The notes under the pieces were generated by a model that had not been told where the DNA came from, searched no databases, and saw nothing but the letters and a program-made list of their open reading frames with translations. The translations under genes and the position numbers were made by a program. Source: a phage. Taken from it: DNA of 64,000 bases. The stretch lies in sequence record PX853108.1; one strand, written 5' to 3'. Positions 35,525 through 63,545 of the stretch are shown piece after piece (positions within the stretch are counted from its first letter, which is position 1; every line of letters starts with the position of its first letter).

Positions 35525-35545
35525 GCTATTTTCCTATAAATGAGA

Positions 35546-35566: not shown

Positions 35567-35647
35567 GTTTTGTTTTGGCTTCATGAGCCTTACTACTTTG
35601 TCGGGTAGTTCAGTACCTTTCGGTAAAAACTACCTTACACCTTTGAA

Positions 35648-36450: not shown

Positions 36451-36467
36451 AGTATTTCTCCTACTTT

Positions 36468-36497
36468 CAAATAAAAAAGTCCCTCCGAAGAGGGACT
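36468..36497 (-). terminator. Intrinsic terminator (minus strand) downstream of the tRNA region
   Basis: Stem AGTCCCTC/GAGGGACT with CGAA loop; the minus strand reads the hairpin followed by TTTTTTATTT. Confidence 0.6.
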
Positions 36498-36754
36498 TAG
36501 TAGCTTTAACGCAGCTAACGAGGCTTGTATGAGTGCTAGGATTTGTAACTCCCAGCATATCCCCACCGTTTTAGCTGACGGCAAACAGAGATTGATAGTC
36601 TCAGAGGATACTTTACTCAGGCGAGTATTATAGTCTACTCATACTCACACTACCCTAACGGGTAGTATGTTTGCAATACCTAGAGTGCCGGACTGTCTCA
36701 CCGGCATTGTCTTTAGAGTGCAATGCAATCAGGACTATGTTCTCTATTAATGAG

Positions 36755-36828
36755 TACCCACTACTGGATTTGAACCAGTGACCTTCCGATTATTAGTCGG
36801 TTGCTTTCCCCGTCTAAGCTAAGTGGGC
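36755..36828 (-). tRNA. tRNA, hand-folded anticodon AAT (Ile?); no encoded CCA
   Basis: Minus-strand sequence GCCCACT-TA-GCTT-AGACGGGGA-AAGC-A-ACCGA-CTAATAA-TCGGA-AGGTC-ACTGG-TTCAAAT-CCAGT-AGTGGGT-A: 7-bp acceptor (G1-U72), D arm, T arm with TTCAAAT loop, 7-nt anticodon loop with U33 and A37. A34 is unusual. Confidence 0.7.
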
Positions 36829-36833
36829 ATAAA

Positions 36834-36909
36834 TGGTTACCCGGACAGGATTCGAACCTGTGTCCTAGTTGGTTTACTAGTGGGGCTTTACCACTAAGCC
36901 TACCGGGTA
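36834..36909 (-). tRNA. tRNA-like gene with encoded CCA but non-canonical anticodon arm
   Basis: Minus-strand TACCCGG-TA-GGCT-TAGTGGTAA-AGCC ... ACAGG-TTCGAAT-CCTGT-CCGGGTA-A-CCA: perfect acceptor, D and T arms; the anticodon region CCACTAGTAAACCAACTAGG folds only as a 5-bp stem with 6-nt loop or 4-bp stem with 8-nt loop. Confidence 0.6.
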
Positions 36910-37493
36910 TTAATGAGTGAGTCACGCCAGACTTTAACTGGCTCCTTCTTCGCAATCCTTACATACCCCTACATAATTATTGCGTTAAGCTTTTTTGTTT
37001 AAGTTTAAGTGAAGGCGTTCTTGCTGACTCATAATAGGTTGGGCGTTTGACGAATGACTAGTTCGTTACTACCCGTTTGCCATAAGTACCTGGCGACTTT
37101 GGTTTGAGGTGGGAGTCCGAGTCCTGTACAGCCTTACCGTTCACACATTGGCAGCGTATCTAGAATAGCACTTCCGGCAACTGGATTTAACTGTTACACC
37201 TCAAATCTGGTAGGGGCGTCCAGAAGTCTCATCTGGTACTTACGCCGTCGTATGGTTACGACTTACCCCCATAATCTTTCTAATTCAGAGTAGCACTGCT
37301 CCACGTTTGGCCTTTGAACTCCGGGATGGATTAGTGCAATGCTACTTTGAATTAGTTGTCAGGGATTCCACCTGGCTCCATCTGTTTTTATAGTCACTCA
37401 GATATCGTCTGGACTCTTTACTATGGGACTCACCGGCTACTTAGAGTAACTACGGTAAATATTATTCCACAGCTTACATTGATGTCGCATCCC

Positions 37494-37577
37494 ATCAAAG
37501 AGTACACTAGCACTGGGCCACGCATAAGTGGGCATCGGCCTTCCTCCCACAGCTAATCTACTAATGTACTCATTGAT
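37494..37577. repeat. Repeat unit A bounded by 17-bp imperfect terminal inverted repeats
   Basis: 5' end ATCAAAGAGTACACTAG and 3' end CTAATGTACTCATTGAT are reverse complements at 15 of 17 positions; followed by a GC hairpin at 37582-37608. Confidence 0.5.
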
Positions 37578-37749
37578 TGGCCCCCCGTTTCTAATACATG
37601 GACGGGGGAACTCCACGGTCGTTTGATAATCAGGACGACTCACTCCTGACTGACGCTTGGCTTATTAGGCTGCCATCAGAACAACATCATCGTTTGCATT
37701 TATGTTATTGGTTCGTTTCTAAAAAACCGCATAATCGCTTACGAAAACT

Positions 37750-37850
37750 ATCAAAGAGTACACTAAGCACAGGTAGCTATCCTGCCGTCTTCTCCACCTA
37801 CACCGGCTACAGTGTAAACCTCCGCACGTTAGCTTAATGTACTCATTGAT
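37750..37850. repeat. Repeat unit B, second copy of the TIR-bounded element
   Basis: 5' ATCAAAGAGTACACTAAG and 3' CTTAATGTACTCATTGAT (16 of 18 complementary); ends nearly identical to unit A, interior diverged but shares CTTC(C)TCC(C)AC. Confidence 0.5.
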
Positions 37851-38035
37851 AGGATGTCATAATAGGGGAGGGAGGACGAGTCCCTCTTTACCCTATGATT
37901 TAGTTTGCATGTAAGACCTAACAATTCGATGCTGTAGGTAGCTATGCTATCCGACATTTAACCCAGCCCATATAGGGGCTTATGTGATTAAAATGCTCAA
38001 CATTGAGCGGTTAGTTGATAAGGGATCTGAAGCCT

Positions 38036-38063
38036 TATCCCAAAGATACTAACCTTTGGGATA
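38036..38063. other. Perfect 10-bp stem hairpin in the ORF-free region
   Basis: TATCCCAAAG-ATACTAAC-CTTTGGGATA; neighbouring hairpins at 38080-38105 (AATGGCC / CCTATAGGGAGA loop / GGCCATT) and 38164-38194 (CTGACG...GGGG-GGCCA-CCCC...CGTCAG). Confidence 0.4.
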
Positions 38064-38582
38064 TAGCCTAAGATTCAGAAATGGCCCCTATAGGGAGAGG
38101 CCATTGATTAACCCGAATGTTGCTTTACCTTTTATGTGATAACCCATTCTTAAAATAGTCTAGCTGACGGATGGGGGGCCACCCCTAGCGTCAGTGCCAT
38201 ACGGCAAAGATTAAGTTAAGAAAGGTTATGATAGGAGTTCCTATCTCAAAGGATTCTAACAGAACCCTTCACGATATTAACTACTCAACGTGAAATTCTT
38301 TGATTCCCTCGACAGGTTCTACACCCCAGGAAAAAGCTAACTTTTCCATTTAATTTTGATTGAACCAATGGACTGGGGAGAGTATTCCAATCCACTGGTT
38401 CGGTTGTTGTTGTTACTCTGGCGGCTTGTCACCACCGTTTTTATCACTGAGTTTCCAAAGTATAAGCACAGTGATGATAAATGCTATGTATGGAGCCGAC
38501 ACGTCCAGAATCCTGATAAGCAATAGCATCAGAATTACGAACACTACCACAAATAGCAGCAGCTTCTGAGCCACCTACCAGA

Positions 38583-39023
38583 TTAACTACGTTTAAGGCC
38601 AGCGAACAGTGAAGGCTTAGTAGCAGGTTTCTCTGCTGGTTCTTCAGCCTTAACTTCTTCCTGCACAACTTCTTCTTGTGCTTCTGGTTCAGTCACTGCT
38701 TCTTCTTTAGGTTCCGGCGTAGAACTCTCGTTCTGACCACCAGTAGAGGTCTGGGTTTCTTCTACCTTTACCTCTTCAACTACTTCTTCCGGCTCTGATT
38801 CTACTGGACGGTGTTTAGCTTCTTGTGGGTTCTTACGAGAACGACGAGTTTTCTTCTCTACTCCCACGGGTGGGGTATCTTCGTGAACCTCTTCGTTGAT
38901 GCCTACGGAGGCTGTACCATCTGCATTGATGACAATATTAACGTCACCAGCAAGATTGATTTGATCATCGACATAAGCCTGTACAGCAGCTTCTACTTCG
39001 GACTGGTTCAAAATGATTTGCAT
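38583..39023 (-). CDS. Acidic low-complexity protein (hypothetical)
   Basis: 146 aa; C-terminal half extremely Glu/Pro/Val-rich (EEVVEEVKVEETQ...); first gene downstream of the ORF-free region on the minus strand. Confidence 0.45.
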   Translation of the reverse strand: MQIILNQSEVEAAVQAYVDDQINLAGDVNIVINADGTASVGINEEVHEDTPPVGVEKKTRRSRKNPQEAKHRPVESEPEEVVEEVKVEETQTSTGGQNESSTPEPKEEAVTEPEAQEEVVQEEVKAEEPAEKPATKPSLFAGLKRS

Positions 39024-39024
39024 A

Positions 39025-39579
39025 TTACGCCTTTAATAACTTAATAAGGTTCTGGAAAGCTGGGAGATTTACACCAGCATGGATTGCACCGATTGCATCA
39101 GCTAAGTGCTCATTCTTATTCAGAAGTTTGCCCTTCTTATCTGTGAGCCAGTTGGCTTCAGGATAGAAGGCATGAGCAGCACGAATCATCGTGTCTTTGG
39201 ATGCGGTTTTATCACCGACCAGTGCAAGTTTGTTTTCAATTGGGGATACTTCAAAGATTGGACAACCCAATGCACGAAATGCACCTATTAATCCTACGCA
39301 TACTCCATAGGATTTCATACCATTAGCAGACTGGGAGCCTACTGGTACTTCTACGAATACTGCTTTAGCAGACCGTAACCATTCCTCACAACCAAGAAAC
39401 AAATCGTGAGCGGCTTGTATATCTTTGGAGTTGGTTCGAACTTGTTTGTTGTGGTCAACTTCAGTTTGAACCAGTTTAAGTTCGACCTGCTCGAAGACGC
39501 CGGACTCAATGTCCAGCGTCCCACGAGCTAAACCCCAATTGCGGAGACTAATGTCTGCACCAACAATTGGGATTTTCAT
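39025..39579 (-). CDS. RuvC-like Holliday junction resolvase
   Basis: 184 aa; N-terminal IVGADISLRNWG (catalytic Asp), FVEVP, and C-terminal HLADAIGAIHAG resemble RuvC-fold motifs. Confidence 0.5.
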   Translation of the reverse strand: MKIPIVGADISLRNWGLARGTLDIESGVFEQVELKLVQTEVDHNKQVRTNSKDIQAAHDLFLGCEEWLRSAKAVFVEVPVGSQSANGMKSYGVCVGLIGAFRALGCPIFEVSPIENKLALVGDKTASKDTMIRAAHAFYPEANWLTDKKGKLLNKNEHLADAIGAIHAGVNLPAFQNLIKLLKA

Positions 39580-40376
39580 TAACGTTTACCGAACAGTGAT
39601 TTACCACCAGCAGGAGTAGTACTCGTGCCAGCACCTGGTTTAGGAGGTAAGCCACCTTTACCATTACCACCAGCAGAACTCTTAGTCTTGTCGCGAGTTT
39701 TGCCTTTGTTCTTCTCCAGCCATGCTGCGTAGAATACAGCCAGTTCTGGGGTCAGCTCTTTTTCAGCCTTCTCTGCTTCCTGAGCCTCGACGACTGTGAC
39801 CAGCAGTTCCGGGTGAAACACTTTCTGAATCTCGTTTACTTCACGGGTTTCACCGGAGTCAACGTAGCCGTTGTCACCTTTAACCTGCTTGGATTCCAGA
39901 ACTTTTTCCAGAGCGAAGGTAACAGTCTGGTTTACCAGATCAACTGGAACCATGACAGACTTATTAACTTCTGCTTTAGCATCGAAATCGTAGACTTTAA
40001 CAATCTTCTCTTCGAAGTCTGCTTCAGGCAGTTCAGTACCAGTAGCCATTAGCATCATGTCGTTAATGACAGTGTAGCCAGGCAAGAAGTATTCTTTACC
40101 GTTCTTCTCGTAAGTAGGCTTGTTGCCTTTAGCATTACCAGAAGTGAAATATACCTGAGCACGGAACTCACCAGCAGGTACGCCATCTGAGTTTTTCATG
40201 TCATCAATGATTAACTGCATCCAGTCTGCCCCAGAGTCAGCTTTGCCTACGTAAGCTACTTTTACATTACCGGTGTAGATATCGGTTTCTTTTGCACCGA
40301 AGCCACCTCCACCCAGAGAGTCTTTAACAGCTTCAACGTTTTTGGTTTTTTCTTTCAGATTACTGAACAATGACAT
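39579..40376 (-). CDS. Single-stranded DNA-binding protein (N4 SSB-like)
   Basis: 265 aa, the length I recall for N4 SSB; Gly-rich N- and C-terminal tails; sits between the resolvase and the recombination ATPase. Assignment by position and composition only. Confidence 0.45.
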   Translation of the reverse strand: MSLFSNLKEKTKNVEAVKDSLGGGGFGAKETDIYTGNVKVAYVGKADSGADWMQLIIDDMKNSDGVPAGEFRAQVYFTSGNAKGNKPTYEKNGKEYFLPGYTVINDMMLMATGTELPEADFEEKIVKVYDFDAKAEVNKSVMVPVDLVNQTVTFALEKVLESKQVKGDNGYVDSGETREVNEIQKVFHPELLVTVVEAQEAEKAEKELTPELAVFYAAWLEKNKGKTRDKTKSSAGGNGKGGLPPKPGAGTSTTPAGGKSLFGKR

Positions 40377-40415
40377 ATGATTTTCCTAATAAGTGATTAA
40401 CAACCAGGCAAACAC

Positions 40416-41168
40416 TTAAGCGTAGTATTCAGCCAGATGGTCTAAGAGTTTCTGGGCATCGTTATCAATGTAAGTCTCGGACTTATCGAACATACCCATT
40501 GGGGAACGAAGTCGTTTGCCAACAGACTTCTTGGTTGGACGGGTCTGGAATACGTGTTTATAGCCTAAGTCACGTTCTTCTTCCGTAATTTCTAGCATCT
40601 TGTTTCCGTACTTCTCCAGTTCTTTAATGTCTACACGTTCTGCGTAAACCACTGTAGAGAAGTAGGCTTCAAGCCCGTTATTCTTAAGAGAACCTTTCAC
40701 TGGGATGAATGTTTTCATCACACCGGCAGCTTCATCAAGTTCGTCTTTAGCATGTGCAGTAATGATTACTGGCTTACCAAACTTAACGACTTTCTGTTGC
40801 AGCAGTATCTTAAAGAACTGTGCAAAATCCCCCCATGCTTTCTGCGTATTTGCAGAAGGCAATACGTACTGGGATTCCAGCATATCCATCATAAAGGTTG
40901 CTGAGTCAATGATGATACCATCAACATCATCTGCCATTTCTCCACCAGGAGATGCAACATCAAATGCTTCCCAGATTTGGTAAGGGTCTTCAATGTTGTA
41001 AGTATTGAACTTGTTACGGAAAGGCAGACGCTTACCTGCTTCAGTATTCAGATAGAGCCAGCGTTCCTGGTTCCGGATGTTACGCAGTGATGCTGATTTA
41101 CCACTCGCAGAGAATCCTGCAATCAGGATTAGCTGAGTGTTCATATCATTGGGAATTGCTTCGGACAT
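40416..41168 (-). CDS. RecA-fold ATPase (AAA_24 / Sak4-like recombination protein)
   Basis: 250 aa; Walker A GFSASGKSA and Walker B IIIDSA. Confidence 0.5.
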   Translation of the reverse strand: MSEAIPNDMNTQLILIAGFSASGKSASLRNIRNQERWLYLNTEAGKRLPFRNKFNTYNIEDPYQIWEAFDVASPGGEMADDVDGIIIDSATFMMDMLESQYVLPSANTQKAWGDFAQFFKILLQQKVVKFGKPVIITAHAKDELDEAAGVMKTFIPVKGSLKNNGLEAYFSTVVYAERVDIKELEKYGNKMLEITEEERDLGYKHVFQTRPTKKSVGKRLRSPMGMFDKSETYIDNDAQKLLDHLAEYYA

Positions 41169-41224
41169 TATTTTTCCTCATTTAATTTAGGAGTCCTTCA
41201 AACCAAAGAAAGACTCCCGTTTGC

Positions 41225-43378
41225 TTACTTGCCAGCGAAGCGTTTAGCCACGGTGACCATTACGGTTGCATTCAATTCATCATCTGGTAATGGATTAGCC
41301 AGTTTCTTATTGAATGAGTGGACGGCTTGCTGTACTTGGGCAAAATCCCAACCACTGTCAACCAATGCCAGTGCGTACTTAATCATTTGATTATTACGAT
41401 TACCGGTAGCAATACGACTAGCGAACCAACGCTCCAGATTATCCAAGGACTGTACTTCCTTCATCTGGTTCCGGAACTGCTCGTTCTTACTAGTACGAGG
41501 AATAAAGTCACGCACGTCCAACAGATTTGCTTCAAGGTTGTAATGATAAGAACCAGTCTCGCAGGACATCCATTTCTTGGCTCGTTGGTTAGCAGATTCA
41601 TCCGTTTCGAATGGTAGCCAAGACATAACGTTATTCATGAACTCTTTGTATTCCTCGGTGTCGAGGTGTAACTCATAGTTCATTGGAATAATCAGTCGGA
41701 AGCGGTTCTCTTCATCAGAATGACGCTTAGTGGTATAGGTCATGAACTTATATTCCTTCATTAGTTCATGGCACGTATGCAGTGGTACTCCACCATCACA
41801 GTCAATAACAATCATGTTAAATCCTGGAATAACGTTCTCTTCAGAACGGTGTCCATTCTTCATGTGATGGTTTACCCAGTGCATACCGGGAGCTTGGGTT
41901 AATACATGCAACTGGTCGAACGGTACACGTTCACCAATGTAGTCATAAGCAAAGCTATCACTATATGCCACTATCATCTCATTGATGTCAGTCTCTTTCA
42001 GAGTCTCACCACGGAAGAACTCAATACCTTCGTTGAAGGTTTTCTTAATGATGATGTGCTGTTTGTAGCCCCATGCTGTAGCAAGGGTCATCATCTCATT
42101 ACGAGCTGCATTGCCACTCTTATAGAACGGCAATGACTCTAGTAAGTCAGCATGAGTCACTTCTTTACCTACAGAGGCAATGTACTTAGCCAGCTTCACA
42201 TAGGCTTTCTCACGATTGAGAATACCCTGGAATGCTGCTCCAGATTCTTCTACAAGCAAAATTGCTTGTTTAAGATGAGACATCTCAATGAATGAACTCT
42301 GGTCAACAAATGCCAGTGCTCCAGCTAGTTTAAGTGCTTTGAAGTAACGGTGGGAGATTTCAGCCTTACGAATTTCTTCGTGGTCAGCCATAGCTTCTGC
42401 TTGTTTCTCACAATCAATTTTGTAAGTAATCAGAGCAATCCCCACTGCATCTTCTACAACCATCTTAAAGCCAAACAGGTTCGGGTCAGCCAGACTATGG
42501 AAGTGGTTAGCCCACTTACCAAGAGACTGTACGTTATCCTGCTTAATCAGGTTACGGTAGATTTCTTCCGGAGACATTGTTGCATGTGCTCGTTTGTCTA
42601 AATGCCCAATGGCAAACAGACAGCGACGTGCATATCCTGTATCGAGGAAGTCATAGAACTGGTCTTCAGTCTGACCACCATCCAGTAGCTTACTTGGTGT
42701 ACCAAACAACAACAGGTTAGCTGGAGTCTTACCATCCAGTTCTTCACCACGAACACTTTCAGCAGTGTTTTTGGTTAGCTTCTGCTTAACCTTACCCTGG
42801 TCATATAATTCCAGGAACAGGGTTAACACATCTGTGTTAGCCAGCAGGTTCGAACCAATTTCATCAATCTGAAGGTTGATTGAACCACACCCAGCCATTA
42901 ACAGCTTATGACGTAGCTGTTTAACTGCTGGTGGAGTACCAGAGTCAAACGTAAACGGATATGCCCCGGCACGTTTATACTCTGCTTCAACTTTATCAAA
43001 CTCATCATTCTGGTCTGTACCTTGACGAGCAGCACGTTCGTTAGCAATCTTCCATAAACGGTCATTTGCAATGACGGGCATGGTGTCTTCCATAAAGCGT
43101 TTACGGAAGCCAGTCATGAACCCGTCTTCAATAATATTTACCGAGTGACCTTTACCGAAACCAGATGTAGCCAACGCAATGGCGTAGATGTTTACCGGCA
43201 GGTCACCACGGTCTTTAGTTACAATGGTTGCACCCATGCAGGATGCCATTTTAGCCAAGAAGTAGGCTACTTCGACACGGAAAAATCCCCGGTCATTATT
43301 CTGGGTTTTATTGCAGAGCACATCTACGATTTCTTCAATCGCTGGATGGTGACTGATGCCAGTAAGGTCGATACTCAT
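41225..43378 (-). CDS. DNA primase (AEP-type prim-pol domain with PriCT-like C-terminus)
   Basis: 717 aa; N-terminal P-loop-like ATSGFGKGHS; C-terminal half has IVIDCDGG (DxD) and PLHTCHEL (His motif) as in archaeo-eukaryotic primases, then a PriCT-like tail. Confidence 0.5.
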   Translation of the reverse strand: MSIDLTGISHHPAIEEIVDVLCNKTQNNDRGFFRVEVAYFLAKMASCMGATIVTKDRGDLPVNIYAIALATSGFGKGHSVNIIEDGFMTGFRKRFMEDTMPVIANDRLWKIANERAARQGTDQNDEFDKVEAEYKRAGAYPFTFDSGTPPAVKQLRHKLLMAGCGSINLQIDEIGSNLLANTDVLTLFLELYDQGKVKQKLTKNTAESVRGEELDGKTPANLLLFGTPSKLLDGGQTEDQFYDFLDTGYARRCLFAIGHLDKRAHATMSPEEIYRNLIKQDNVQSLGKWANHFHSLADPNLFGFKMVVEDAVGIALITYKIDCEKQAEAMADHEEIRKAEISHRYFKALKLAGALAFVDQSSFIEMSHLKQAILLVEESGAAFQGILNREKAYVKLAKYIASVGKEVTHADLLESLPFYKSGNAARNEMMTLATAWGYKQHIIIKKTFNEGIEFFRGETLKETDINEMIVAYSDSFAYDYIGERVPFDQLHVLTQAPGMHWVNHHMKNGHRSEENVIPGFNMIVIDCDGGVPLHTCHELMKEYKFMTYTTKRHSDEENRFRLIIPMNYELHLDTEEYKEFMNNVMSWLPFETDESANQRAKKWMSCETGSYHYNLEANLLDVRDFIPRTSKNEQFRNQMKEVQSLDNLERWFASRIATGNRNNQMIKYALALVDSGWDFAQVQQAVHSFNKKLANPLPDDELNATVMVTVAKRFAGK

Positions 43379-43890
43379 TTGATTAATCCTACGCTCTTAT
43401 TAGTGACGGCATATTCTCCGAAGTATTTTACGGCAGCTAAGTCATACGCTTTGGCTGCTTCAATTGCTTCCAGGAATACACCTAAATGAATTGATTTACG
43501 GTTTACTTTGATTTTGGCTAAGTAGTTACCCCTGAACTTAGTAACACCCATAAAACCACTGGTGTTGTTTTTATTCAGTCCACGGTTAGCACCATTGGTG
43601 CTTTTATCCGCTTCCCTTAGATTGTCTATCCAGTTGTGGTGACGTATGGTGTCTTTATGGTCTATTAAACCAGTAGGCCACATACCGTACACGTACAACC
43701 AAGCTAACCTATGAGCAGCTTCCCGTTTGGAATCAACTGTTATGTAGAGATAACCGTCACTGTTATTGAGCGACCCAGCAACACTACCGACAGGTGTTCG
43801 GTTACTGAGGGAGATGCGGCGAGTAAATATCCCAGTAAGTGGGTCATAATGCAGCAACTCTTTTAGCCGTTGCTGAGTCAGCTTAATCAT
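43375..43890 (-). CDS. HNH homing endonuclease with C-terminal AP2 DNA-binding domain
   Basis: ORF 43375-43947 trimmed to ATG 43890 (MIKLTQQRLKELL), which overlaps the upstream stop as ATGA; HNH core HRLAWLYVYG...IDHKD...N..NLREA; AP2-like SGFMGVTKFRGNYLAKIKVNRKSIHLGVFLEAIEAAKAYDLAAVKYFGEYA. Confidence 0.75.
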   Translation of the reverse strand: MIKLTQQRLKELLHYDPLTGIFTRRISLSNRTPVGSVAGSLNNSDGYLYITVDSKREAAHRLAWLYVYGMWPTGLIDHKDTIRHHNWIDNLREADKSTNGANRGLNKNNTSGFMGVTKFRGNYLAKIKVNRKSIHLGVFLEAIEAAKAYDLAAVKYFGEYAVTNKSVGLIK

Positions 43891-44867: not shown

Positions 44868-45129
44868 TATAAGCCTTTTTCAATATGCGATTGGCATAGT
44901 GCACAATCTTCTCTGAGTCGTACACAGAAGAGTTTCCAGGTTTACCATTACCCATACGGGCAGCAGCATTTCGCCACAGAGCTTTAAAGGCACAACCTTC
45001 ATCGAAGGTCATGCCCAGTGCTTGGATAATATCCTCACACTCTGCTTGGTATGGCTCTTGCTCTTCCCGTTGGGGATTCTTAATTAGAACTACATAGTAG
45101 TTATTAAGACCACCGGAGAGCTTAGTCAT
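44845..45129 (-). CDS. Hypothetical protein
   Basis: 94 aa ORF; start overlaps the stop of the upstream gene (ATGA at 45129). Confidence 0.4.
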   Translation of the reverse strand: MTKLSGGLNNYYVVLIKNPQREEQEPYQAECEDIIQALGMTFDEGCAFKALWRNAAARMGNGKPGNSSVYDSEKIVHYANRILKKAYNEDNQQP

Positions 45130-48010: not shown

Positions 48011-48019
48011 AGCTTTACC

Positions 48020-48550: not shown

Positions 48551-48560
48551 ATATCCTCCC

Positions 48561-49871: not shown

Positions 49872-49904
49872 TAAAATCTCCAGTAAAAAACCCTCCGTAG
49901 AGGG

Positions 49905-50360
49905 TTAGATGTAAGGGGTTAAATCCGGGGGAGTGTAGTCTTTCCCTTTCATAACTTTCATATTCTCATTGAAGACAGGTTCACCATCTTCAAACTTAGA
50001 ATAGTTTGAGCGATTGACCTCAGCCAATGCTCCAGGGACATTCATCCCAAGGAAAGTACCGACGCCAGTTGCTGTAACAATCTGATCTGCCAGTGAATCC
50101 AGTAGGTTGGTACTAGCGTCAATGCGATAAGCATCGTCATTACGTTTCATACGGTTTGCCAGATTTGTAAGAGCATCCTGTGCACGTTGCAGTAATTCTG
50201 CATCGTAACTACCATTTGGATGAATGGTCTGAAGCATTTCTTCTACTTCTTCCAGATGGCAACCAATCTGGGTACTAATGTTCTTACTTGTTGGATTTGC
50301 TACTGCTTTCCGGAACCAGGCTTCCGTATTTGCCAGCGTACAAACGGATGAACTTGTCAT
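49905..50360 (-). CDS. All-alpha nucleotide pyrophosphohydrolase-like (MazG-like?) protein
   Basis: 151 aa; acidic clusters HLEEVEEM and LLDSLADQ; first 77 nt overlap the upstream HTH gene in another frame, so the real start may be ATG 50237. Confidence 0.3.
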   Translation of the reverse strand: MTSSSVCTLANTEAWFRKAVANPTSKNISTQIGCHLEEVEEMLQTIHPNGSYDAELLQRAQDALTNLANRMKRNDDAYRIDASTNLLDSLADQIVTATGVGTFLGMNVPGALAEVNRSNYSKFEDGEPVFNENMKVMKGKDYTPPDLTPYI

Positions 50361-50679: not shown

Positions 50680-50741
50680 AGCTTATTTCCTCTTCAAATA
50701 TAGCCTCACTTTATTATAAGTGAGGCTATTTGAACAGGCTA

Positions 50742-52790: not shown

Positions 52791-52794
52791 CAGA

Positions 52795-55362: not shown

Positions 55363-55405
55363 TTATTTACTCTCCAGATTAAATGTTGCTTCTTGGTTAT
55401 GACTA

Positions 55406-55600
55406 TTAAGAATCTAATGCTGATTTACAGGCTTCAAAGATTACTTTACGTAATTCCCGTTCTTTTTCCGGTTCCTCATGGGGACTGTAACCAAAAGGAC
55501 TGTTTTGCATAAAACCAGCCAGAATTAGTAAATCTTCTTCAGATAGACCATCAATAGTTATGGAGTATTGGTTTTTGCTTTTTACTGTAGCGTTAGCCAT
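55406..55600 (-). CDS. Hypothetical small protein
   Basis: ORF 55406-55630 trimmed to ATG 55600 (GGAG at 8 nt). Confidence 0.35.
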   Translation of the reverse strand: MANATVKSKNQYSITIDGLSEEDLLILAGFMQNSPFGYSPHEEPEKERELRKVIFEACKSALDS

Positions 55601-55909
55601 TTCGTTTCTCCGCCATTGCTTGTAATACAAATACTACAGTGTCTGAAATTTGGTCATCAGTTGGTTCAACTAATTGACCGTTCTCGTCATACATTTCTTT
55701 CAGAAGTGCATTTAGTTCAGCCATACCAGCCAGTATCATTTCTTTACTTGGTTCCAGCCATAATTTTCGTTCCTCTGCTAGTGCAGCGATGCACATACAT
55801 AGAGAGGCAATGTTAGCTGGGCAAGCAGCAATATCACCAGTTACTGCAATCTCACTAAGTGGGACAGCTTTACCGGTTTTACTATGAATAACTTCAGGAT
55901 TAATCATGG
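55593..55909 (-). CDS. Hypothetical protein
   Basis: ORF 55593-55955 trimmed to ATG 55909, which overlaps the upstream stop (ATGA) and has GGAG at 8 nt. Confidence 0.4.
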
Positions 55910-56112
55910 ATTTGCTCCAGGTTATGGGCAGGAATAGGGAAGCATGGATAGTCACCTGTAGGGTCCAGTGTTACTGACACATGCAGTGTATTGGTCATTT
56001 GGGTTAGCATTTGAGCAGCATTGAAATCATCCTGAATACAGGCATATACAATGTCACCTTTCTCACCTTCACACATTACTGGTGTGTCTTTGATGCGGTA
56101 TTTAGCAGGCAT
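55900..56112 (-). CDS. Hypothetical small protein
   Basis: 70 aa ORF; gene-dense minus-strand context. Confidence 0.35.
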   Translation of the reverse strand: MPAKYRIKDTPVMCEGEKGDIVYACIQDDFNAAQMLTQMTNTLHVSVTLDPTGDYPCFPIPAHNLEQIHD

Positions 56113-56121
56113 ATCATTTCC

Positions 56122-56346
56122 TTATTTTTTAATAACAATGGGATTTCTGTAATTCCAGGCTCTATTAAGCTTTTCCAGCCTAAATCCTGCATATCCTGAT
56201 TCTTTAGACAGGATTTCTTCCGCAGTATCTATTGCATTAATTTTGCATAAACGCCCATCTATACAGATGTTTTTAAAACTGCCCGTAGATTCTCTGTATA
56301 TTCCATTGGAGTCTTTCTCCAACATAGTTGCATACCAACTTGCCAT
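56122..56346 (-). CDS. Hypothetical small protein
   Basis: ORF 56122-56376 trimmed to ATG 56346 (AGGAGG upstream); the longer form would start inside the A-tract of a terminator. Confidence 0.35.
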   Translation of the reverse strand: MASWYATMLEKDSNGIYRESTGSFKNICIDGRLCKINAIDTAEEILSKESGYAGFRLEKLNRAWNYRNPIVIKK

Positions 56347-56373
56347 AAGTCCTCCTGGGACAGTAATTGAAAC

Positions 56374-56401
56374 CAAAAAAAGACCTCCCGGAGGAGGTCT
56401 T
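56374..56401 (-). terminator. Intrinsic terminator (minus strand)
   Basis: Stem AGACCTCC/GGAGGTCT with CGGA loop; minus strand reads hairpin then TTTTTTT; 5 nt after the stop of gene 56406-56642. Confidence 0.6.
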
Positions 56402-56405
56402 AGGT

Positions 56406-56642
56406 TTACTTACTATTCTCTTCAATGAAGCGTCTCATACGTTTCTTTGCTTCATCATGTTCCTTAATGGCTACATAGTCTCGTGCATAATAATATACAC
56501 ACCATAGGCCAAGAACACATGCAGAGAAGCGAGCCACCACGAAGAACATCTCTTCTAGGCTCTGAGCATTATGTAATGAAAATACAAATTCCAGAACCAG
56601 GATGATACTTACAATCATTGCTTGAATAGCTAAGCGTTTCAT
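56406..56642 (-). CDS. Small membrane protein (2 predicted TM segments)
   Basis: 78 aa; two hydrophobic segments and a basic C-terminus. Confidence 0.4.
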   Translation of the reverse strand: MKRLAIQAMIVSIILVLEFVFSLHNAQSLEEMFFVVARFSACVLGLWCVYYYARDYVAIKEHDEAKKRMRRFIEENSK

Positions 56643-57583
56643 TCAGTAATAGTCTCACCAGGGATTAATTTACGGAACTGGATAAAGTGGAGTAGGTTGC
56701 CTGAGTACAGATTCCCCTCTTTATCCATGGAAGTAACACCTTGTTCCCATGTAACTGGGTTCATGTTATTCACGTACTTCTCACTAAGGTTCATGGGCGT
56801 AGCTTGATGTTCCGTTGGGGAAGCATGAATAGGTTGGTTTTCAACTAATTTAGCAAATAAACTAAGGTCTTCTTCAATAGTAGATGGACGTCCTTCAAAG
56901 TTGTTATAGGAAGCACGAGCACAGCGTGCAGCACTTACTTTGAGAAGTAGTCCATGCACTTCTGCATCACTTGGTTCATCACGTGTAATTCGATTACGTT
57001 TGCAGAAATTGTAAGCCCCAACACGATCAATATGAGCAATATATGGCAGATGCCATTGCCCATATGGTAATGCCCTTGGCGTACTTTCTTCATGTGCCTT
57101 ACGCATTGCTTGAGCCAGTTCACGAATCTCTGGTTGTGCATCTTTGTGGTCACGCAATCCATAGAAATTAGCCCAGCTAGTTGAAGTTACCACTACACGG
57201 ATATGAGTGAAGGGTTCCAGAATACGGTTAACAATCTGCTTATGCACTTGCCCACGACGCAGCATTTCTGCATAGGTAGCAACACTAGATGCAGCCTGTT
57301 CCCAGATAAAAATTGCATCACTGCGTTGGTCTTCAGATAGCTCTTCAAATGCCTGCATACCTTTCTGGTTCTTACCCCAGTGACTAGGCATCACTGGTTC
57401 ATTACGAACCTGTTCGATGAACTTAGAAGTAGGGATAGCACGACTGCTTGAAGCGTTACGGTTAAATACACGGTGGGTCATAAATTCACTGTGAATGAAT
57501 CGGGGATAAACCAATTCAAAGGTTGTGATACGAGTTCCTGTTTCTGGATGAACGGAATCTGCAATAACTGATGCCTTAATCAT
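56639..57583 (-). CDS. thyX: Flavin-dependent thymidylate synthase (ThyX-like)
   Basis: 314 aa; FMTHRVFNRNASSSR fits the ThyX signature (R/T)HR-x7-S-x-R. Confidence 0.5.
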   Translation of the reverse strand: MIKASVIADSVHPETGTRITTFELVYPRFIHSEFMTHRVFNRNASSSRAIPTSKFIEQVRNEPVMPSHWGKNQKGMQAFEELSEDQRSDAIFIWEQAASSVATYAEMLRRGQVHKQIVNRILEPFTHIRVVVTSTSWANFYGLRDHKDAQPEIRELAQAMRKAHEESTPRALPYGQWHLPYIAHIDRVGAYNFCKRNRITRDEPSDAEVHGLLLKVSAARCARASYNNFEGRPSTIEEDLSLFAKLVENQPIHASPTEHQATPMNLSEKYVNNMNPVTWEQGVTSMDKEGNLYSGNLLHFIQFRKLIPGETITE

Positions 57584-58026
57584 TAGAATGACCTTAGATA
57601 GTTGGTGATACCACTTCTCGTCTCTGTGATTCTCTTAACCTGAACGTATACCAGCTTAAACTCACTACGAGGTAGTTCTTGTAATACTGCCACACCTTCA
57701 GTAAGGGCCACAGAACACGCTACAGCGGTTTCTTCTTTAAAGGAGTACAAGTCTTCATACATGAGGGCTTCATACTCTTTACGGAGCATACAGAGAGCAT
57801 CTCTTGCTTTATCACTTACTTCTTGTGAACCAGCAGACATAGCTAAGCTGTATATGATAAAGACTTGTTCAAAAACAAAGTCCAGTAATTTATCAGGGTT
57901 GCTAGTACCCATAAATAATTTTGTTGTGTAGGAACGAGCTTTACTGTTGAGTTCATACTCATCCTCTATGCCTTTATTGTAAAGAACAGGATTTCGTTCC
58001 CTTTTTCTTAGGAATGGGATACGCAT
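57583..58026 (-). CDS. Hypothetical protein
   Basis: 147 aa ORF; stop overlaps the thyX-like start. Confidence 0.45.
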   Translation of the reverse strand: MRIPFLRKRERNPVLYNKGIEDEYELNSKARSYTTKLFMGTSNPDKLLDFVFEQVFIIYSLAMSAGSQEVSDKARDALCMLRKEYEALMYEDLYSFKEETAVACSVALTEGVAVLQELPRSEFKLVYVQVKRITETRSGITNYLRSF

Positions 58027-58406
58027 TAGTATTTACTACCTCTTCTATACCAGGGGTAGTGGTGAGTAGTGCTTTTACTTTTGAACACATCCTTAGTACG
58101 GGGGTTCTTTTGTATTTGAGCCAGATAAAGTTGTGTATCGTCTTTACACGGGTTAAGCCAGAACTTATCTATGATTCGGTCTACCTTAGATTTCAGATGA
58201 GGTTCTGGGGGAATGTATGAAGGAAATGATCTGCTAGTGGCCCATTTTTTCTGAATAAGAACCTGCATTGTTGCATAAATATCTGCTTCAATTTCATTAT
58301 CCACCCGGTCATGGATAGCTTTACCCAAAGCAAGCATTGCAGTTTGTTCCAGCTTACCGAAGTCCATCCCTTGAAAGATAGACTTACCATTTTGTCTGTT
58401 TGACAT
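58026..58406 (-). CDS. Hypothetical protein
   Basis: 126 aa ORF, preceded by a terminator hairpin. Confidence 0.45.
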   Translation of the reverse strand: MSNRQNGKSIFQGMDFGKLEQTAMLALGKAIHDRVDNEIEADIYATMQVLIQKKWATSRSFPSYIPPEPHLKSKVDRIIDKFWLNPCKDDTQLYLAQIQKNPRTKDVFKSKSTTHHYPWYRRGSKY

Positions 58407-58422
58407 AAGAGTACCTGTAATT

Positions 58423-58448
58423 AAAAAAGCCCACGGGTTAGGTGGGCT
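58423..58448 (-). terminator. Intrinsic terminator (minus strand)
   Basis: Stem AGCCCAC/GTGGGCT with 7-nt loop; minus strand then reads TTTTTT. Confidence 0.55.
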
Positions 58449-58523
58449 TGGGTTAGGAGATGGATAAGCAATGAGCTGGAAGTAACTTCCACAAGCACCA
58501 CTATGTAATGATGCTTAGATTAG

Positions 58524-58766
58524 TTACTCTGCTTTACTGCCACCATTGGTTTGAACAACAGTTACATTTGTAACCTGGTTCTGACCTTTGTTGGACAGTG
58601 ACCAAATCAGTGCTACTACCCAGAATACTAGTGACCAGCCTAATACGATATTAAGCACACCAATACCCCACTTAGAGGCATGGCCTCGTGAAAAAGCAAT
58701 GATAGTAGGGATAAGGTATACAGCTAATACAAATAACAGAACAAGGATTGCTGCTAAAGATTCCAT
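58524..58766 (-). CDS. Superinfection-immunity-like (Imm family) small membrane protein
   Basis: ORF 58524-58802 (GTG) trimmed to ATG 58766 (AGGAA at 5 nt); PTIIAFSRGHASKWGIGVLNIVLGWSLVFWVVALIWSLS matches my recollection of the Imm superinfection-immunity family pattern. Confidence 0.5.
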   Translation of the reverse strand: MESLAAILVLLFVLAVYLIPTIIAFSRGHASKWGIGVLNIVLGWSLVFWVVALIWSLSNKGQNQVTNVTVVQTNGGSKAE

Positions 58767-58839
58767 GATGGTTCCTATGTGGGGTTGAGTTAGTTTCTTC
58801 ACAAATAGCCCAGCATAGTTGGGCTATTTAGGCAGTTAC

Positions 58840-59049
58840 TTACTCAGCATCTTTGCTTGCAGGAGCAAGAGCTTTCTTCAGGTAATTACGTACTGAACGA
58901 TAGGTTTCTTTGGTTTCTATATAGTTATTATCTACAAATATGACGCGTGCATGGTCAGACTGTGGAATCTGTTCTACTGCAATTACATTTGCAGCATTAA
59001 TGGTTAAGCGTACATCTGAGGTTGCATGAGTTACTTGAAATACTGACAT
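58840..59049 (-). CDS. Hypothetical small protein
   Basis: 69 aa ORF between the dCTP-deaminase-like gene and a hairpin at 58804-58828. Confidence 0.35.
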   Translation of the reverse strand: MSVFQVTHATSDVRLTINAANVIAVEQIPQSDHARVIFVDNNYIETKETYRSVRNYLKKALAPASKDAE

Positions 59050-59058
59050 GAGTTTTCC

Positions 59059-59565
59059 TTATTTACTGCTTCTTGCAGCTACTGGTTTGTTTTCCTGGTT
59101 CTGATACTTGCCATTGTAATTAGCAGGTTCCTGAACCAGATGAAATAATACTTGAGCTATCCCAGAACCAGCCGGGATATGCAATTTCTTGCGACCATGA
59201 TAGACCAGTTCAAGAGTCAGATACCCTTTCCATCCTGGTTCTATTACGGTATTGAACACAGATAATGCACGTCTTGCCCATGTAGACTTATCGTGAACGA
59301 TAGCTACACAGGACGGGGACATGTTGAACTTCTCAATTGCTGAAGCTAATGTGAATTTACCGAAATGTCGTGATACTTGATTTCCATCAACAACCTTCAC
59401 CATTGGAATCAACCCAAATAAGCGATAAAAGGTAATATCTTGTTTGATACGAATATCATAACCAGCTTCACCTAATCCATAGCTTACACCATGCTCTGAT
59501 ATCTTATGGTCTGGGACATCCAGCAACTGAGATGAACGATAAAGAGAATTACCATTAACAACCAT
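59059..59565 (-). CDS. dcd: dCTP deaminase / dUTPase-fold protein
   Basis: 168 aa; VIEPGWKGYLTLELVYHG resembles the Dcd/dUTPase beta-barrel motif (D/E-P-G-F/W-x-G ... LE). Confidence 0.45.
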   Translation of the reverse strand: MVVNGNSLYRSSQLLDVPDHKISEHGVSYGLGEAGYDIRIKQDITFYRLFGLIPMVKVVDGNQVSRHFGKFTLASAIEKFNMSPSCVAIVHDKSTWARRALSVFNTVIEPGWKGYLTLELVYHGRKKLHIPAGSGIAQVLFHLVQEPANYNGKYQNQENKPVAARSSK

Positions 59566-60770
59566 TATTTCATTCCTTTAGGGATATGAACTACCTCCCC
59601 AAAAGGTACGGTAGCATTAGGATTATTCAGAACACACCAGATGATAGGAATATCAAATGGCAGTTCTTCCATTGGATGAACATACATATCGGAGAATATG
59701 ATTGCAGCGGTTGGCTTATTCTTAATAATCCACTCGCGTACTGGTTCCAGGTTTGTACCACCACGACCGGTAATCTTAATCTCTTCAAAAGTATCTTCTT
59801 CAGTGATGTCCATCTCTTCTTGAATAATATCGTCGAAGGTAATTAGGGACATCTTCTTAGGATTGAACTGGCTCTTAACGTAGGCAACCTCTGAGTTAAA
59901 ACGCAGAGAATCAGCACTACTAATAGAACCAGATACATCCTCAAAGTAGGCTAGGTGTCGCAGACGTCCTTCGTCATCTTCCAGCGAAGGTAGATAGATG
60001 TCAGTGTAACGACGGTTAGGTCTGGCCCACGTATAGTGTGTATCATCAATGTCGGTAAAGAAGTTCATCAGAACTTCTTGCCATGGAACCACTGGTTTAA
60101 GGAATTGGGTAATGACCTCTTCCATACGACCAGCACCTTTACCGGGCATCTGTCCACCAGCCATCTTCTGGCTCTGCATTGCACGTACTACGTTGTTGAC
60201 GACAGCACCCTGGGACTGCCCCGAAGAGGGGGATTTCATGTCGCCAGCAAGACCTGCTCCAGCACCCCCTGACGGCTTCTGCCTTTTCTGAGGGTTCTTC
60301 ATCAGGTCATCGTAGATGTCTTCTTCGACCCATCCTTTATATTGAGGATCTTTGCAAATGCCTTCATTAATACCAGTGAACTTGTAACCATCCTCTTCTA
60401 ACTGAAGGTTAATGAAGTGGTCACATGCCTGGTTCCAGACTTCTGGGTCACGGCTTCCACGACGAATGTCATGTAGATATGCTACATGCCATAGTTCATG
60501 CATAAGCACCGTTTCTCTTGCATCTGGACACATCCAGATAAAGAAGTCTGGGTTGAAATGGAGTTCTATCCCATCAGTACATGCAGTGGGACAATTCTCA
60601 CGTTTCCATGAGAACTTAAGACTACACAGTAATGAACCAAAGAACGCAGCAGACTTGCCTAGGAAAGCCTGAGCCTGAATACGGTCATACTCACGCATGA
60701 GTTGTTCATCACTAAGTGTGTGCTGAGGAAATTGGTTCATTATTTTATCCGTGAATGTAACGAGAGACAT
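59565..60770 (-). CDS. VWA-domain protein with N-terminal HExxH metallopeptidase-like motif (MoxR partner)
   Basis: 401 aa; HELWH near the N-terminus; MIDAS-like DVSGSIS in the C-terminal half; overlaps the upstream AAA ATPase gene. Confidence 0.6.
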   Translation of the reverse strand: MSLVTFTDKIMNQFPQHTLSDEQLMREYDRIQAQAFLGKSAAFFGSLLCSLKFSWKRENCPTACTDGIELHFNPDFFIWMCPDARETVLMHELWHVAYLHDIRRGSRDPEVWNQACDHFINLQLEEDGYKFTGINEGICKDPQYKGWVEEDIYDDLMKNPQKRQKPSGGAGAGLAGDMKSPSSGQSQGAVVNNVVRAMQSQKMAGGQMPGKGAGRMEEVITQFLKPVVPWQEVLMNFFTDIDDTHYTWARPNRRYTDIYLPSLEDDEGRLRHLAYFEDVSGSISSADSLRFNSEVAYVKSQFNPKKMSLITFDDIIQEEMDITEEDTFEEIKITGRGGTNLEPVREWIIKNKPTAAIIFSDMYVHPMEELPFDIPIIWCVLNNPNATVPFGEVVHIPKGMK

Positions 60771-61797
60771 TAGCAGCAGCCTTACGCCATTCAGGTGTAG
60801 CCTGAATTTCTGGTAATGCTTTGCCTACTGTACGGAAGTACAGAATTTTATGAGTGAACGTTTTAAAGCGTTCAATGTACTGAAGAACATCAACAAAGTT
60901 CTCTTCAGTAGTTTTGTTAGCCAGATGGTTAACGGTAGCCCAGCACAGATTGTTATCTTCCGGTAGTGCACAGCCCAGTGGGTCTTTGACTACCTTCTCA
61001 ATCGTAATGATACGATTATATACCTGAGTAAACTGAATAAATTCTGTAGCCTTACCAGCAGTAACGTGACCTGCATAGTAGATAGAATCTTCGTCAGGCA
61101 GAGCACCTTCTGGCTGATTCTTGAGGTCTTTGTTAACAAAGTCCCAGGTACGTGGGCAACAGAATGTTTTGTTCTTATGAGCTGGGTCGAAGTCATGCAG
61201 GTAACCTGGGTTAGCATGTAAGAATGCAACCAGACGTTCATCCCATTGCTGAGGAATCATTACGTCTTCAACAAAGATGTCGAAGTTAAGTTCCATTTCA
61301 AAGTGAACCACACGAGACTGCATTGCAGTACCTAGTGGGTTAACAATGGCACGGTCAGTAGCTTTGTTACCTGCACAGACAATCATCACATTAGGATGAA
61401 GTTTTTTCTGACCAGTCATACGGTCTAGAATCAGTTTATATGCAGCAGCTACTACTTCTTTCTTAGCGGAGTTGAACTCATCTAGGAATAATAGCCAGCC
61501 ATTATAACCTTCGGGTACTTCATCCCCCTCAATCGGGAATAGGTCAGCGAATGGAATAAACTCTGCACGGTCACCATTACGGAATGGTAGACCAGAAAGA
61601 TCTTCTGGGGCAGAAGTAGACAGACGGTGGTCAATTAACTTCATACCAAATTCTTCTGCAATAGAACGAATGATTGCAGATTTACCCATACCTGGGGATG
61701 AAGTCAGGAACGGTACGTTACCTGCTTTTAAGGCACGAATAATAAAGTTACGAGCTTGACGTGAATTACATACAGTCAAGGAGTCAATGCTTGTCAT
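60745..61797 (-). CDS. MoxR-like AAA+ ATPase
   Basis: 350 aa; Walker A SSPGMGKSA and Walker B LLFLDEFNSA. Confidence 0.7.
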   Translation of the reverse strand: MTSIDSLTVCNSRQARNFIIRALKAGNVPFLTSSPGMGKSAIIRSIAEEFGMKLIDHRLSTSAPEDLSGLPFRNGDRAEFIPFADLFPIEGDEVPEGYNGWLLFLDEFNSAKKEVVAAAYKLILDRMTGQKKLHPNVMIVCAGNKATDRAIVNPLGTAMQSRVVHFEMELNFDIFVEDVMIPQQWDERLVAFLHANPGYLHDFDPAHKNKTFCCPRTWDFVNKDLKNQPEGALPDEDSIYYAGHVTAGKATEFIQFTQVYNRIITIEKVVKDPLGCALPEDNNLCWATVNHLANKTTEENFVDVLQYIERFKTFTHKILYFRTVGKALPEIQATPEWRKAAANVSRYIHG

Positions 61798-61831
61798 TTA
61801 CTTACTCTCCTAAAGCTAATGGGATTACTGA

Positions 61832-62161
61832 TTAAGATTTGGTGCAGGGATATGCCTTATGTACTGAGTACACAATAATTTGGGATGTATTCTTCAATTT
61901 AAGGATTGCAGAGTCATAAATAACTACTTTGGCAATCTTAGGCAAAATGACTGAGTATTTGATACCTTCTGGAACACAGTTATCTGTGCTCTCTATGTAA
62001 GAGATCATACTGCCCATGAAGAACCCTTGCCCGAACGCATCACGGGTGTCGTCCAGGTAAGCCTGAGCACCTTCCAGAATTGGTTCTGGTTCAATTGCTT
62101 GTGCATTTGGGGCCAAAGCTATCAGTGCAGCTACTGCAACACCTTTAAGTAAAGTTTTCAT
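61832..62161 (-). CDS. Secreted/periplasmic protein (signal peptide)
   Basis: 109 aa; N-terminal MKTLLKGVAVAALIALAPNAQA looks like a Sec signal peptide with an AQA cleavage site. Confidence 0.45.
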   Translation of the reverse strand: MKTLLKGVAVAALIALAPNAQAIEPEPILEGAQAYLDDTRDAFGQGFFMGSMISYIESTDNCVPEGIKYSVILPKIAKVVIYDSAILKLKNTSQIIVYSVHKAYPCTKS

Positions 62162-62347
62162 TTAGTTACCTTTCATTTCATTGAGTTGAAGTACACCGAT
62201 AGGGGTTAATGACCACCCAAGACCAGCATTGAACTGTACTAAGCCCAGCTTCTTAAGAGACTGTGCGGTTTTGTTATTACGGTTGCTGGTGGCAGAGCCA
62301 CCTTGAACCATACGAAGGAAGATTGCCTGGGACTGGGTAAGTTTCAT
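62162..62347 (-). CDS. Hypothetical small protein
   Basis: 61 aa ORF, tightly packed with neighbours. Confidence 0.3.
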   Translation of the reverse strand: MKLTQSQAIFLRMVQGGSATSNRNNKTAQSLKKLGLVQFNAGLGWSLTPIGVLQLNEMKGN

Positions 62348-62532
62348 TTCTTCTCCGGTATGAACTGCATTACACAGTTTTGATTACGAGGGATATTAAG
62401 TTCACATTCATGCTTGAGGGTTTGAGTTACGGAGTTTGGAGTAGAACCAAAGTAGGTATTAGAAATAGCTACAAATCCTGCACCTATTAAACCACCCAGC
62501 AAGAATGAGAAGAATGCAATTTCTTTATACAT
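62344..62532 (-). CDS. Small membrane protein
   Basis: 62 aa; hydrophobic N-terminus FFSFLLGGLIGAGFVAI; preceded by a terminator. Confidence 0.35.
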   Translation of the reverse strand: MYKEIAFFSFLLGGLIGAGFVAISNTYFGSTPNSVTQTLKHECELNIPRNQNCVMQFIPEKK

Positions 62533-62557
62533 TTCCTGTCTCCAGAATGTTTAAGTC

Positions 62558-62587
62558 AAAAAAAGACCTCCCTTCAATAGGGAGGTC
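62558..62587 (-). terminator. Intrinsic terminator (minus strand)
   Basis: Stem GACCTCCC/GGGAGGTC with 7-nt loop; minus strand then reads TTTTTTT. Confidence 0.6.
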
Positions 62588-63471: not shown

Positions 63472-63545
63472 ATCAATTTCCTCATAAGTAAATAGCAGGA
63501 TTAGTATACATGATGAATAAAAATAAAAACCCTCCAAAAGGAGGG

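Follow-up and report, generated by a model that had tools for sequence, protein, structure and literature searches.

Predicted intrinsic terminators between co-directional genes of the middle block in a G7C-like, N4-like coliphage

Three short hairpin elements on the minus strand of the 64,000-nt phage sequence PX853108.1 (here the window, meaning the whole stretch of DNA that was analysed), centred on 36477-36498, 56380-56401 and 62565-62587 and referred to below as sites 1, 2 and 3, are predicted to be Rho-independent (intrinsic) terminators in the sense RNA of the middle block, a run of co-directional replication and nucleotide-metabolism genes of about 29 kb (35291-64000, minus strand). 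We put the probability of this reading at about 0.88. By their features, some seven U after a hairpin whose own energy is -13.6 to -15.9 kcal/mol, they would be strong terminators. DNA identity and collinear annotation place the phage as a G7C-like (Gamaleyavirus; Schitoviridae, Enquatrovirinae) N4-like coliphage: Gamaleyavirus Escherichia phages (e.g., ZQ2, St11Ph5, Bp4 and pSb-1) match 5-kb and 25-kb pieces of the region at ~93-94% identity, and the gene order is collinear with the window in the annotations of ZQ2 and of phage N4. A first-pass annotation had flagged the three sites as a conserved attenuator family with a common stem sequence that divides the middle region into transcription units, an interpretation that finds partial support here, being right in outline and overstated.

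Site 1 (hairpin 36498..36477, U-tract 36476..36467, minus) reads AAGTCCCTC-TTCG-GAGGGACTT and then TTTTATTT, with a 9-bp stem under a C(UUCG)G loop, and lies at the end of a tRNA and non-coding stretch, before a 91-aa open reading frame (ORF) at 36175-36450. Site 2 (56373..56401, hairpin 56401..56380, minus) reads AAGACCTCC-TCCG-GGAGGTCTT and then TTTTTGG, with 9 bp and a C(UCCG)G loop, and begins 4 nt past the stop codon of a 78-aa ORF (56406-56642) that itself follows the thymidylate-synthase gene, while site 3 (62558..62587, hairpin 62587..62565, minus), 50 nt after the stop codon of a Hoc-like gene (62638-63471), reads GACCTCCCT-ATTGA-AGGGAGGTC and then TTTTTTTG, with 9 bp, a 5-nt loop and 7 U. 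All three stems are perfect and contain 5-6 G-C pairs, their loops measure 4, 4 and 5 nt, and they are followed by 6-7 consecutive T (the stem-closing T counted) and further T-rich sequence, which bears out the original call of minus-strand terminators at these places. Folded as RNA, segments of ~41-43 nt comprising each hairpin and short flanks reach -15.0, -18.2 and -19.7 kcal/mol (z = -3.6, -4.3 and -4.6, respectively), and none of 200 shuffles folds as well. The sites do stand just upstream of gene starts, as had been claimed, the hairpin-to-ATG gap being 26, 33 and 32 nt (start codons at 36450, 56346 and 62532) with a normal Shine-Dalgarno sequence in each gap. The proposed design of an A-tract followed by (A)G(A/T)CCTCC can be seen where it was placed; its A6, however, is no more than the minus-strand U-tract read from the opposite strand, and the final C of CCTCC at site 1 belongs to the loop rather than the stem. 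Because the transcribed strand carries no separate upstream A-tract, the three sites would be one-directional terminators.

Several other assignments for these sequences were considered and set aside. The GGAGG of the 3' arm was rejected as the ribosome-binding site of the next gene, each ATG having its own Shine-Dalgarno sequence 5-9 nt before it and the arm being ~30 nt off. Outer helices drawn by the fold at sites 2 and 3 (AAACC/GGUUU and UCAAG/UUGA) are not kept in relatives and were taken as chance. No sigma-70 promoters were predicted between terminator and gene at sites 1-3, where there is no room for them. At gathering score, Rfam returned two tRNAs and nothing else for 35-64 kb; sub-threshold matches at site 1 (STnc100, Phe leader, CRISPR repeat) were discarded, as the terminator hairpin itself drives them. 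For the T7 class II termination signal ATCTGTT, 13 occurrences were counted where 12.9 are expected, which is neither enrichment nor avoidance.

The three sites are not alone: counting them, the middle block carries about ten equivalent elements on its sense strand, at 63779, 63547, 62587, 58449, 56401, 50726, 49906, 36498, 35566 and 35256, found by two independent scans and by one strict scan with shuffles. The strict scan, which required a perfect stem of 7 bp or more with 4 or more G-C pairs and a T-rich tail and covered the sense strand of 35228-64000 with 200 dinucleotide shuffles, returned 8 sense-strand terminators, compared with 0.055 +/- 0.23 in the shuffles and 1 on the antisense strand. 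Likewise, the pattern CCTC-N3-9-GAGG-N0-4-TTTT gave 12 overlapping matches against 0.2 expected, at five distinct places between 35231 and 63544, all on the minus strand. Every one of the ~10 elements sits in a gap between co-directional genes, after a stop codon, and in 9/10 the T-rich tail directly follows the stem. Four of the six 4-nt loops among them are UNCG closed by C-G, in the sense-strand reading only. The idea that the sites split the middle region into transcription units is thus supported and, with the seven additional elements, would extend to ~10 units.

Conservation was assessed by running the scans used on the window over loci of related phages that surround their thymidylate-synthase and SSB genes. 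At junctions collinear with N4, a terminator is present at 8/10 positions, mostly with a different stem sequence. In the alignment of site 1 orthologues, 94.8% of cells are paired and four pairs have changed on both sides, as against 31-70% pairing in shifted controls; the stem base is retained and the U-tract invariant, and the top of the stem varies in sequence and in length (9 to 13 bp). Several of these changes give G-U pairs, which pair in the sense RNA only. In close relatives, CCCCTAGAG, CCCCTGGAG, CCCCCTGT or GCCCCCTAG takes the place of CCTCC at site 1, and the N4 counterpart lies at 33577-33606. All G7C-like phages, and two more distant lineages, have an identical site 2 stem, with loops TCCG, TTCG or TACA; other genera carry other stems at this junction (TGCCTCC in N4, where the counterpart is at 14830-14850, GACCCGC and GACCCAC), and more distant phages have G-rich 5' arms. 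Site 3 is conserved across Gamaleyavirus loci, and its N4 counterpart, after gp17, is AGCCCTCC-TTGTG-AGGGCT; stems likewise differ among other genera at the same junctions for site 3 and for the site upstream of the Hoc-like gene. The commonest tetraloop among relatives is TTCG, and the extra stability of UNCG loops is specific to RNA. Given the compensatory and G-U changes and the C(UNCG)G loops, selection is, on this comparative evidence, acting on the RNA hairpin in the sense transcript, and the conserved parts, to judge from the alignments, are the hairpin and U-tract rather than the CCTCC sequence. The word 'conserved' in the first-pass annotation is therefore apt for the presence of terminators at the same gene junctions in related phages, but not for CCTCC, and a family in the sense of sequence is not supported, given the substitutions at site 1 and the other stems found at site 2 in other genera. 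Positions are, in short, kept across N4-like genera while stems turn over.

The remaining elements illustrate the same behaviour. Furthest upstream, 63746..63779 (minus) reads AGCCTCATTCC-TTCG-GGAGTGAGGCT then TATTTTTT, with 11 bp including one G-U pair, and relatives have AGCCTCACTCC, GGCCTCATACC or AGCCACTCC in its place. Directly upstream of the leader of the Hoc-like gene, 63520..63547 (minus) reads AACCCTCC-TTTT-GGAGGGTT then TTTATTTT, and relatives aligned at this position show the stems AACCCACC, AGCCACCC and GCCCCATACC, and AAGGCTATCCC in N4. The element at 58419..58449 (minus), after an ORF resembling superinfection-immunity genes, is without CCTC, reading AAGCCCAC-CTAACCC-GTGGGCTT then TTTTAATT (N4 counterpart, 13109-13125). 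After rIIB, at 50695..50726 (hairpin 50703-50726, minus), a conserved hairpin, GCCTCACTT-ATAATA-AAGTGAGGC, is a doubtful or weak terminator: its stem shows compensatory changes in relatives (CCCTCACTT, GCTCCAGT in N4, and GCCTCAGT), and its tail, TATATTTG or TATCTTTG, is no proper U-tract. It may be a weak terminator, a processing site or a stabiliser. Just before the helicase gene, and overlapping the upstream stop codon, 49881..49906 (minus) reads AACCCTC-TACG-GAGGGTT then TTTTACTG, its counterpart in N4 being GAGCCGCCC-ATATA-GGGCGGTTT. At the boundary between the middle block and the end of the virion RNA polymerase gene there are two hairpins. One, AAGCCCTC(C) at 35538..35573 (hairpin 35546-35566), was flagged on both strands and may work in both directions; the other, at 35225..35256 (hairpin 35233-35256, minus), is the last terminator of the middle block, GAAGCCCCTC-ATTA-GAGGGGCTTT, converges with the virion RNA polymerase gene (plus strand, end at 35227) and has an N4 counterpart at 34497-34514; the plus-strand tail after it is not T-rich.

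As to how the elements would work, the N4 middle block is transcribed by the phage's heterodimeric T7-like RNA polymerase II (RNAP II), aided by gp2 and gp1, and the late block by the host sigma-70 polymerase, activated by the phage SSB (PMC4496689). We infer which polymerase stops at the sites and how efficiently: on the middle block of the window phage it would be mainly the two-subunit T7-like RNAP II, with any host polymerase reading the block as a second candidate. A 9-bp G+C-rich hairpin, in some cases capped by a C(UNCG)G tetraloop, would form in the nascent RNA while the polymerase transcribes the U-tract, and the transcript would be released. Sites 1-3 and their ~7 equivalents would partition the co-directional block into ~10 units, bracketing the gene for the Hoc-like decoration protein and closing a long unit that takes in the genes from helicase through SSB and on to the tRNAs; this unit corresponds to one long stretch free of a strong terminator (~49.9 to 36.5 kb). 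Since only 11-33 nt separate most terminators from the ribosome-binding site or start codon that follows, and such gaps leave no room for a conventional promoter, downstream genes would have to be reached by partial read-through or from very short AT-rich RNAP II promoters.

What has been observed here is the hairpins themselves, how far they exceed chance, on which strand and in which gaps they lie, and that they are conserved with compensatory changes, and the combination (a G+C-rich stem-loop, a U-tract directly after it, a position on the sense strand past gene ends beyond chance, and a conserved fold) is that of intrinsic terminators. Weighing against the terminator assignment are that the 3' ends and efficiencies in this phage are predictions from sequence; that N4-type RNAP II may not respond to hairpin and U-tract signals as T7 RNA polymerase and the host polymerase do; that, if the terminators are as strong as their features suggest, expression of downstream genes with no visible promoters goes unexplained; and that one element in ten (50703-50726) has a poor U-tract. 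Attenuation as a form of regulation, which the first-pass annotation implied, is not borne out: when the fold takes in 100 nt of upstream sequence, the hairpin is retained in the minimum-energy structure and in the centroid alike, and its 5' arm has no competing partner. No leader peptide, antiterminator or ligand-binding domain is evident, and Rfam at gathering score reports tRNAs only; the sequence upstream of the sites belongs to the final part of a coding gene or to a tRNA-like stretch.

An alternative that merits discussion, though we hold it to be quite unlikely, is that the hairpins are, or double as, RNAP II promoter elements, so that each ends one transcript and starts the next in or after the T-rich tail. 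Middle promoters of the N4-like Pseudomonas phage LUZ7 are described as G+C-rich hairpins with a stem of at least 6 bp and a loop of 3-4 nt, ~15 bp upstream of the start site, and the stem and loop geometry of sites 1 and 2 fits that description (PMC9163698); the minimal AT-rich element (-7 to +2) reported for N4 RNAP II promoters is loosely matched by T-runs followed by A (PMC4496689). Most gaps are, moreover, too short for any other promoter, and the run that follows site 1, CTTTTTTATTT, does not vary, N4 included. Yet LUZ7 start sites prefer G, whereas here the position 15 nt from the loop centre falls within the T-run, and the LUZ7 authors call N4 middle promoters sequence-specific, unlike those of LUZ7, the window phage being close to N4. 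The G-U changes and UNCG loops, in addition, indicate a hairpin in the sense-strand RNA rather than in DNA, where the template strand would have A-C mismatches. Nor do the sites resemble the virion-polymerase hairpin promoters of N4 and KP8, with their 5-bp stems and 3-nt loops (GTTGC-TTC-GCAAC and GAAGC-TCC-GCTTC), those of KP8 sharing a flanking ...TATGGA. A hairpin promoter of the N4 virion-polymerase type (5-7-bp stem, 3-nt loop, conserved flank, early end of the genome) was accordingly rejected for elements with 9-bp stems, 4-5-nt loops and a T-run. That hairpin and T-run also seed RNAP II initiation is a possibility alongside termination.

Two further explanations we consider very improbable. 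Were the hairpins mainly protectors or processing sites of RNA 3' ends, shielding the upstream mRNA from exonucleases or marking RNase cleavage, they would recall the stable C(UUCG)G hairpins known between cistrons of phage T4, and the rIIB hairpin, conserved with compensatory changes yet lacking a good U-tract, would be at home among them. A pure stabiliser, however, would have no need of the T-rich tail that directly follows the stem in 9/10 elements or of a U-tract invariant in orthologues, and the LUZ7 analogue terminates transcription in reporter assays (PMC10204088); the roles are in any case not exclusive, as a terminated RNA ends in a protective hairpin. Slightly less probable still is that a small repeated or mobile palindromic (REP-like) element gave rise to the sites by spreading through the block, which would make them alike through common descent and not function. 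It is true that sites 2 and 3 have the stem GACCTCC/GGAGGTC in common, together with an identical 16-mer, GGGAGGTCTTTTTTTG (56374-56389 and 62557-62572, minus), found nowhere else in the window (0.05 expected), and AACCCTC...GGAGGGTTTTT is common to the elements at 49906 and 63547. Against this, nothing is alike beyond stem and T-run, the loops and flanks of sites 2 and 3 being unrelated; each site has a counterpart with a different stem in other genera, which points to old sites evolving in place; CCTCC is not conserved at site 1; and the same element with shared flanks was not seen at non-orthologous places in relatives. Of the proposed attenuator family, then, the shared design stands and common descent is not supported, with the reservation that the 16-mer could reflect either convergence or a local copying event within the G7C-like lineage; because the N4 stems differ at both places, limited copying or homogenising between sites 2 and 3 within Gamaleyavirus is possible.

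With intrinsic termination kept as the preferred reading, the make-up of the stems raises a separate matter. CCTC is present in the 5' arm of 7/8 strict window terminators and CG in 0/8; among strong terminators in a 150-kb sample of E. coli K-12, the corresponding figures are 0/29 with CCTC and 16/29 containing CG. For a comparison of middle and late blocks, contigs with both blocks were sampled, the late blocks being reached via the capsid gene. Unique arms with CCTC number 14/33 in the middle block and 0/26 in the late block, and G-rich 5' arms 3/33 and 11/26, counts that are small and not phylogenetically independent; by lineage, CCTC occurs in the middle block of 5/10 and in the late block of none. 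Mapped LUZ7 terminators show the same split in arm polarity. Reversed polarity is frequent in late-block hairpins: directly after the major capsid gene, the hairpin at 17686-17707 reads AAGGGGGAC-ATAA-GTCCCCCTC in the sense direction, with the G-rich arm on the 5' side and a poor T-run, and a relative has GGGGAGG-ATTA-CCTCCCC at this position. CCUC/GAGG stems with a C-rich 5' arm may thus mark the middle block, as distinct from the late block or the sampled E. coli terminators, which we offer as a lead and not a finding. That the stem make-up is a polymerase signature, with terminators in the blocks read by the phage T7-like polymerases having, in several N4-like lineages and nearly without exception, a C-rich, G-poor 5' arm, often CCUC, and a GAGG-type 3' arm beside the U-tract, and those in late blocks, read by the host polymerase, having no CCUC and the opposite polarity in about half of cases, so resembling the host's own terminators, seems to us improbable, if clearly less so than the rival explanations above. 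We know of no characterisation of the termination mode of N4-type RNAP II; if true, the signature would define the termination needs of this heterodimeric enzyme, and the middle/late difference is a cheap and testable lead to them.

Turning to the gene context, the late and structural genes lie on the plus strand (2881-35227) and end with the gene for the virion RNA polymerase (24455-35227, plus; 3590 aa). The middle block encodes, in reading order and among others, the Hoc-like decoration protein, an ATPase, dCTP deaminase, thymidylate synthase, rIIA/rIIB, helicase, DNA polymerase, primase, SSB, a RuvC-like resolvase and two tRNAs. Inside this replication block, at 62638-63471 (minus), the Hoc-like capsid-decoration gene is flanked and would be insulated by terminators on both sides (62558-63547), and its 57-nt leader has a -10-like element, TATACT, for which N4 and several other lineages have CATAAT. 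Such an arrangement suggests that this virion protein has a promoter of its own, possibly read by the host polymerase. Upstream of site 1, ~2 kb of the minus strand (36499-38580) is without a convincing ORF and holds tRNA Ile (36754-36828, minus), a second tRNA with an odd anticodon loop (36834-36909, minus), a below-threshold tmRNA-like match (37665-37768, minus) and, directly upstream of the site, a well-folded tRNA-like remnant (~36505-36590; z = -3.5 for a 134-nt segment that includes the site 1 hairpin); the tRNA sets annotated at the counterpart of this stretch vary among relatives. Sites resembling sigma-70-type promoters are rarer than in shuffles, both in the window (26 vs 35.6 +/- 5.9 and 24 vs 44.4 +/- 8.3 for 30000-64000) and in N4 (31 vs 57.2 +/- 6.9 and 17 vs 47.9 +/- 8.1 for N4 1-35000), a deficit that fits avoidance of host promoters in both genomes. 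At the window's left end, within a small block of genes on the minus strand, a very stable hairpin at 2245-2270 (minus), GGGGTAGAGTC-GAGA-GGCTCTACCCC (-20.7 kcal/mol), is followed by ATTTCTTT.

Set beside known systems, the elements are ordinary and leave current understanding unchanged; their practical yield is a map of transcription units across the middle block of a G7C-like phage. Transcription attenuators, such as the trp, thr and his leaders and riboswitch terminators, likewise place a terminator upstream of a coding region in the same direction. Unlike them, the window sites have no leader peptide, alternative antiterminator pairing or known ligand or protein site, and the terminator directly follows the stop codon of the upstream gene. 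Rho-independent terminators of E. coli and the class I terminator T-phi of T7, which ends in ...GAGGGGUUUUUUG, share the G+C-rich stem, short loop and U-tract of 6-8, with a 5' arm that is usually C-rich and a 3' arm that is G-rich. The E. coli terminators differ from those of the middle block in stem make-up, and the polymerase expected on the middle block is a split T7-like enzyme. Closer are the elements of N4 itself (14830-14850, 33577-33606, 7620-7638 and others), which to our knowledge are predicted and not individually mapped. They occupy the same positions, after the thymidylate-synthase homologue gp30, before gp48 and after gp17, and follow the same hairpin and U-tract design, several with CCTCC stems (TTGCCTCC, AGAAGCCTCCGG, AGCCCTCC and GCCCTCC), but differ from those of the window in stem sequence, stem length and loop size. 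Some 17-18 such predicted terminators are routine in papers on N4-like genomes (PMC6027278).

The nearest measured analogue is terminator T31 of LUZ7, a phage with the same three-polymerase programme as the window phage. T31 consists of AACCCCUC-UUCG-GAGGGGUU and a U-run, with a termination efficiency during infection of 91% by ONT-cappable-seq (PMC10204088, Table 1; PMC9163698), is among the strongest terminators in E. coli reporter assays (PMC10204088), and has co-directional genes of the early/middle block on either side, the next ATG being ~24 nt away. Site 1, AAGUCCCUC-UUCG-GAGGGACUU and a U-run, is near-identical in design, both being ~25 nt before the next start codon. They differ in that T31 belongs to another subfamily and host and to a non-orthologous gene junction, and that its 3' ends have been measured whereas the window sites are known from sequence. 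Read-through at many termination sites shapes operon structure in LUZ7 (PMC9163698). As has been done for LUZ7, the window's elements could serve as a set of parts, being short, probably strong and one-directional terminators.

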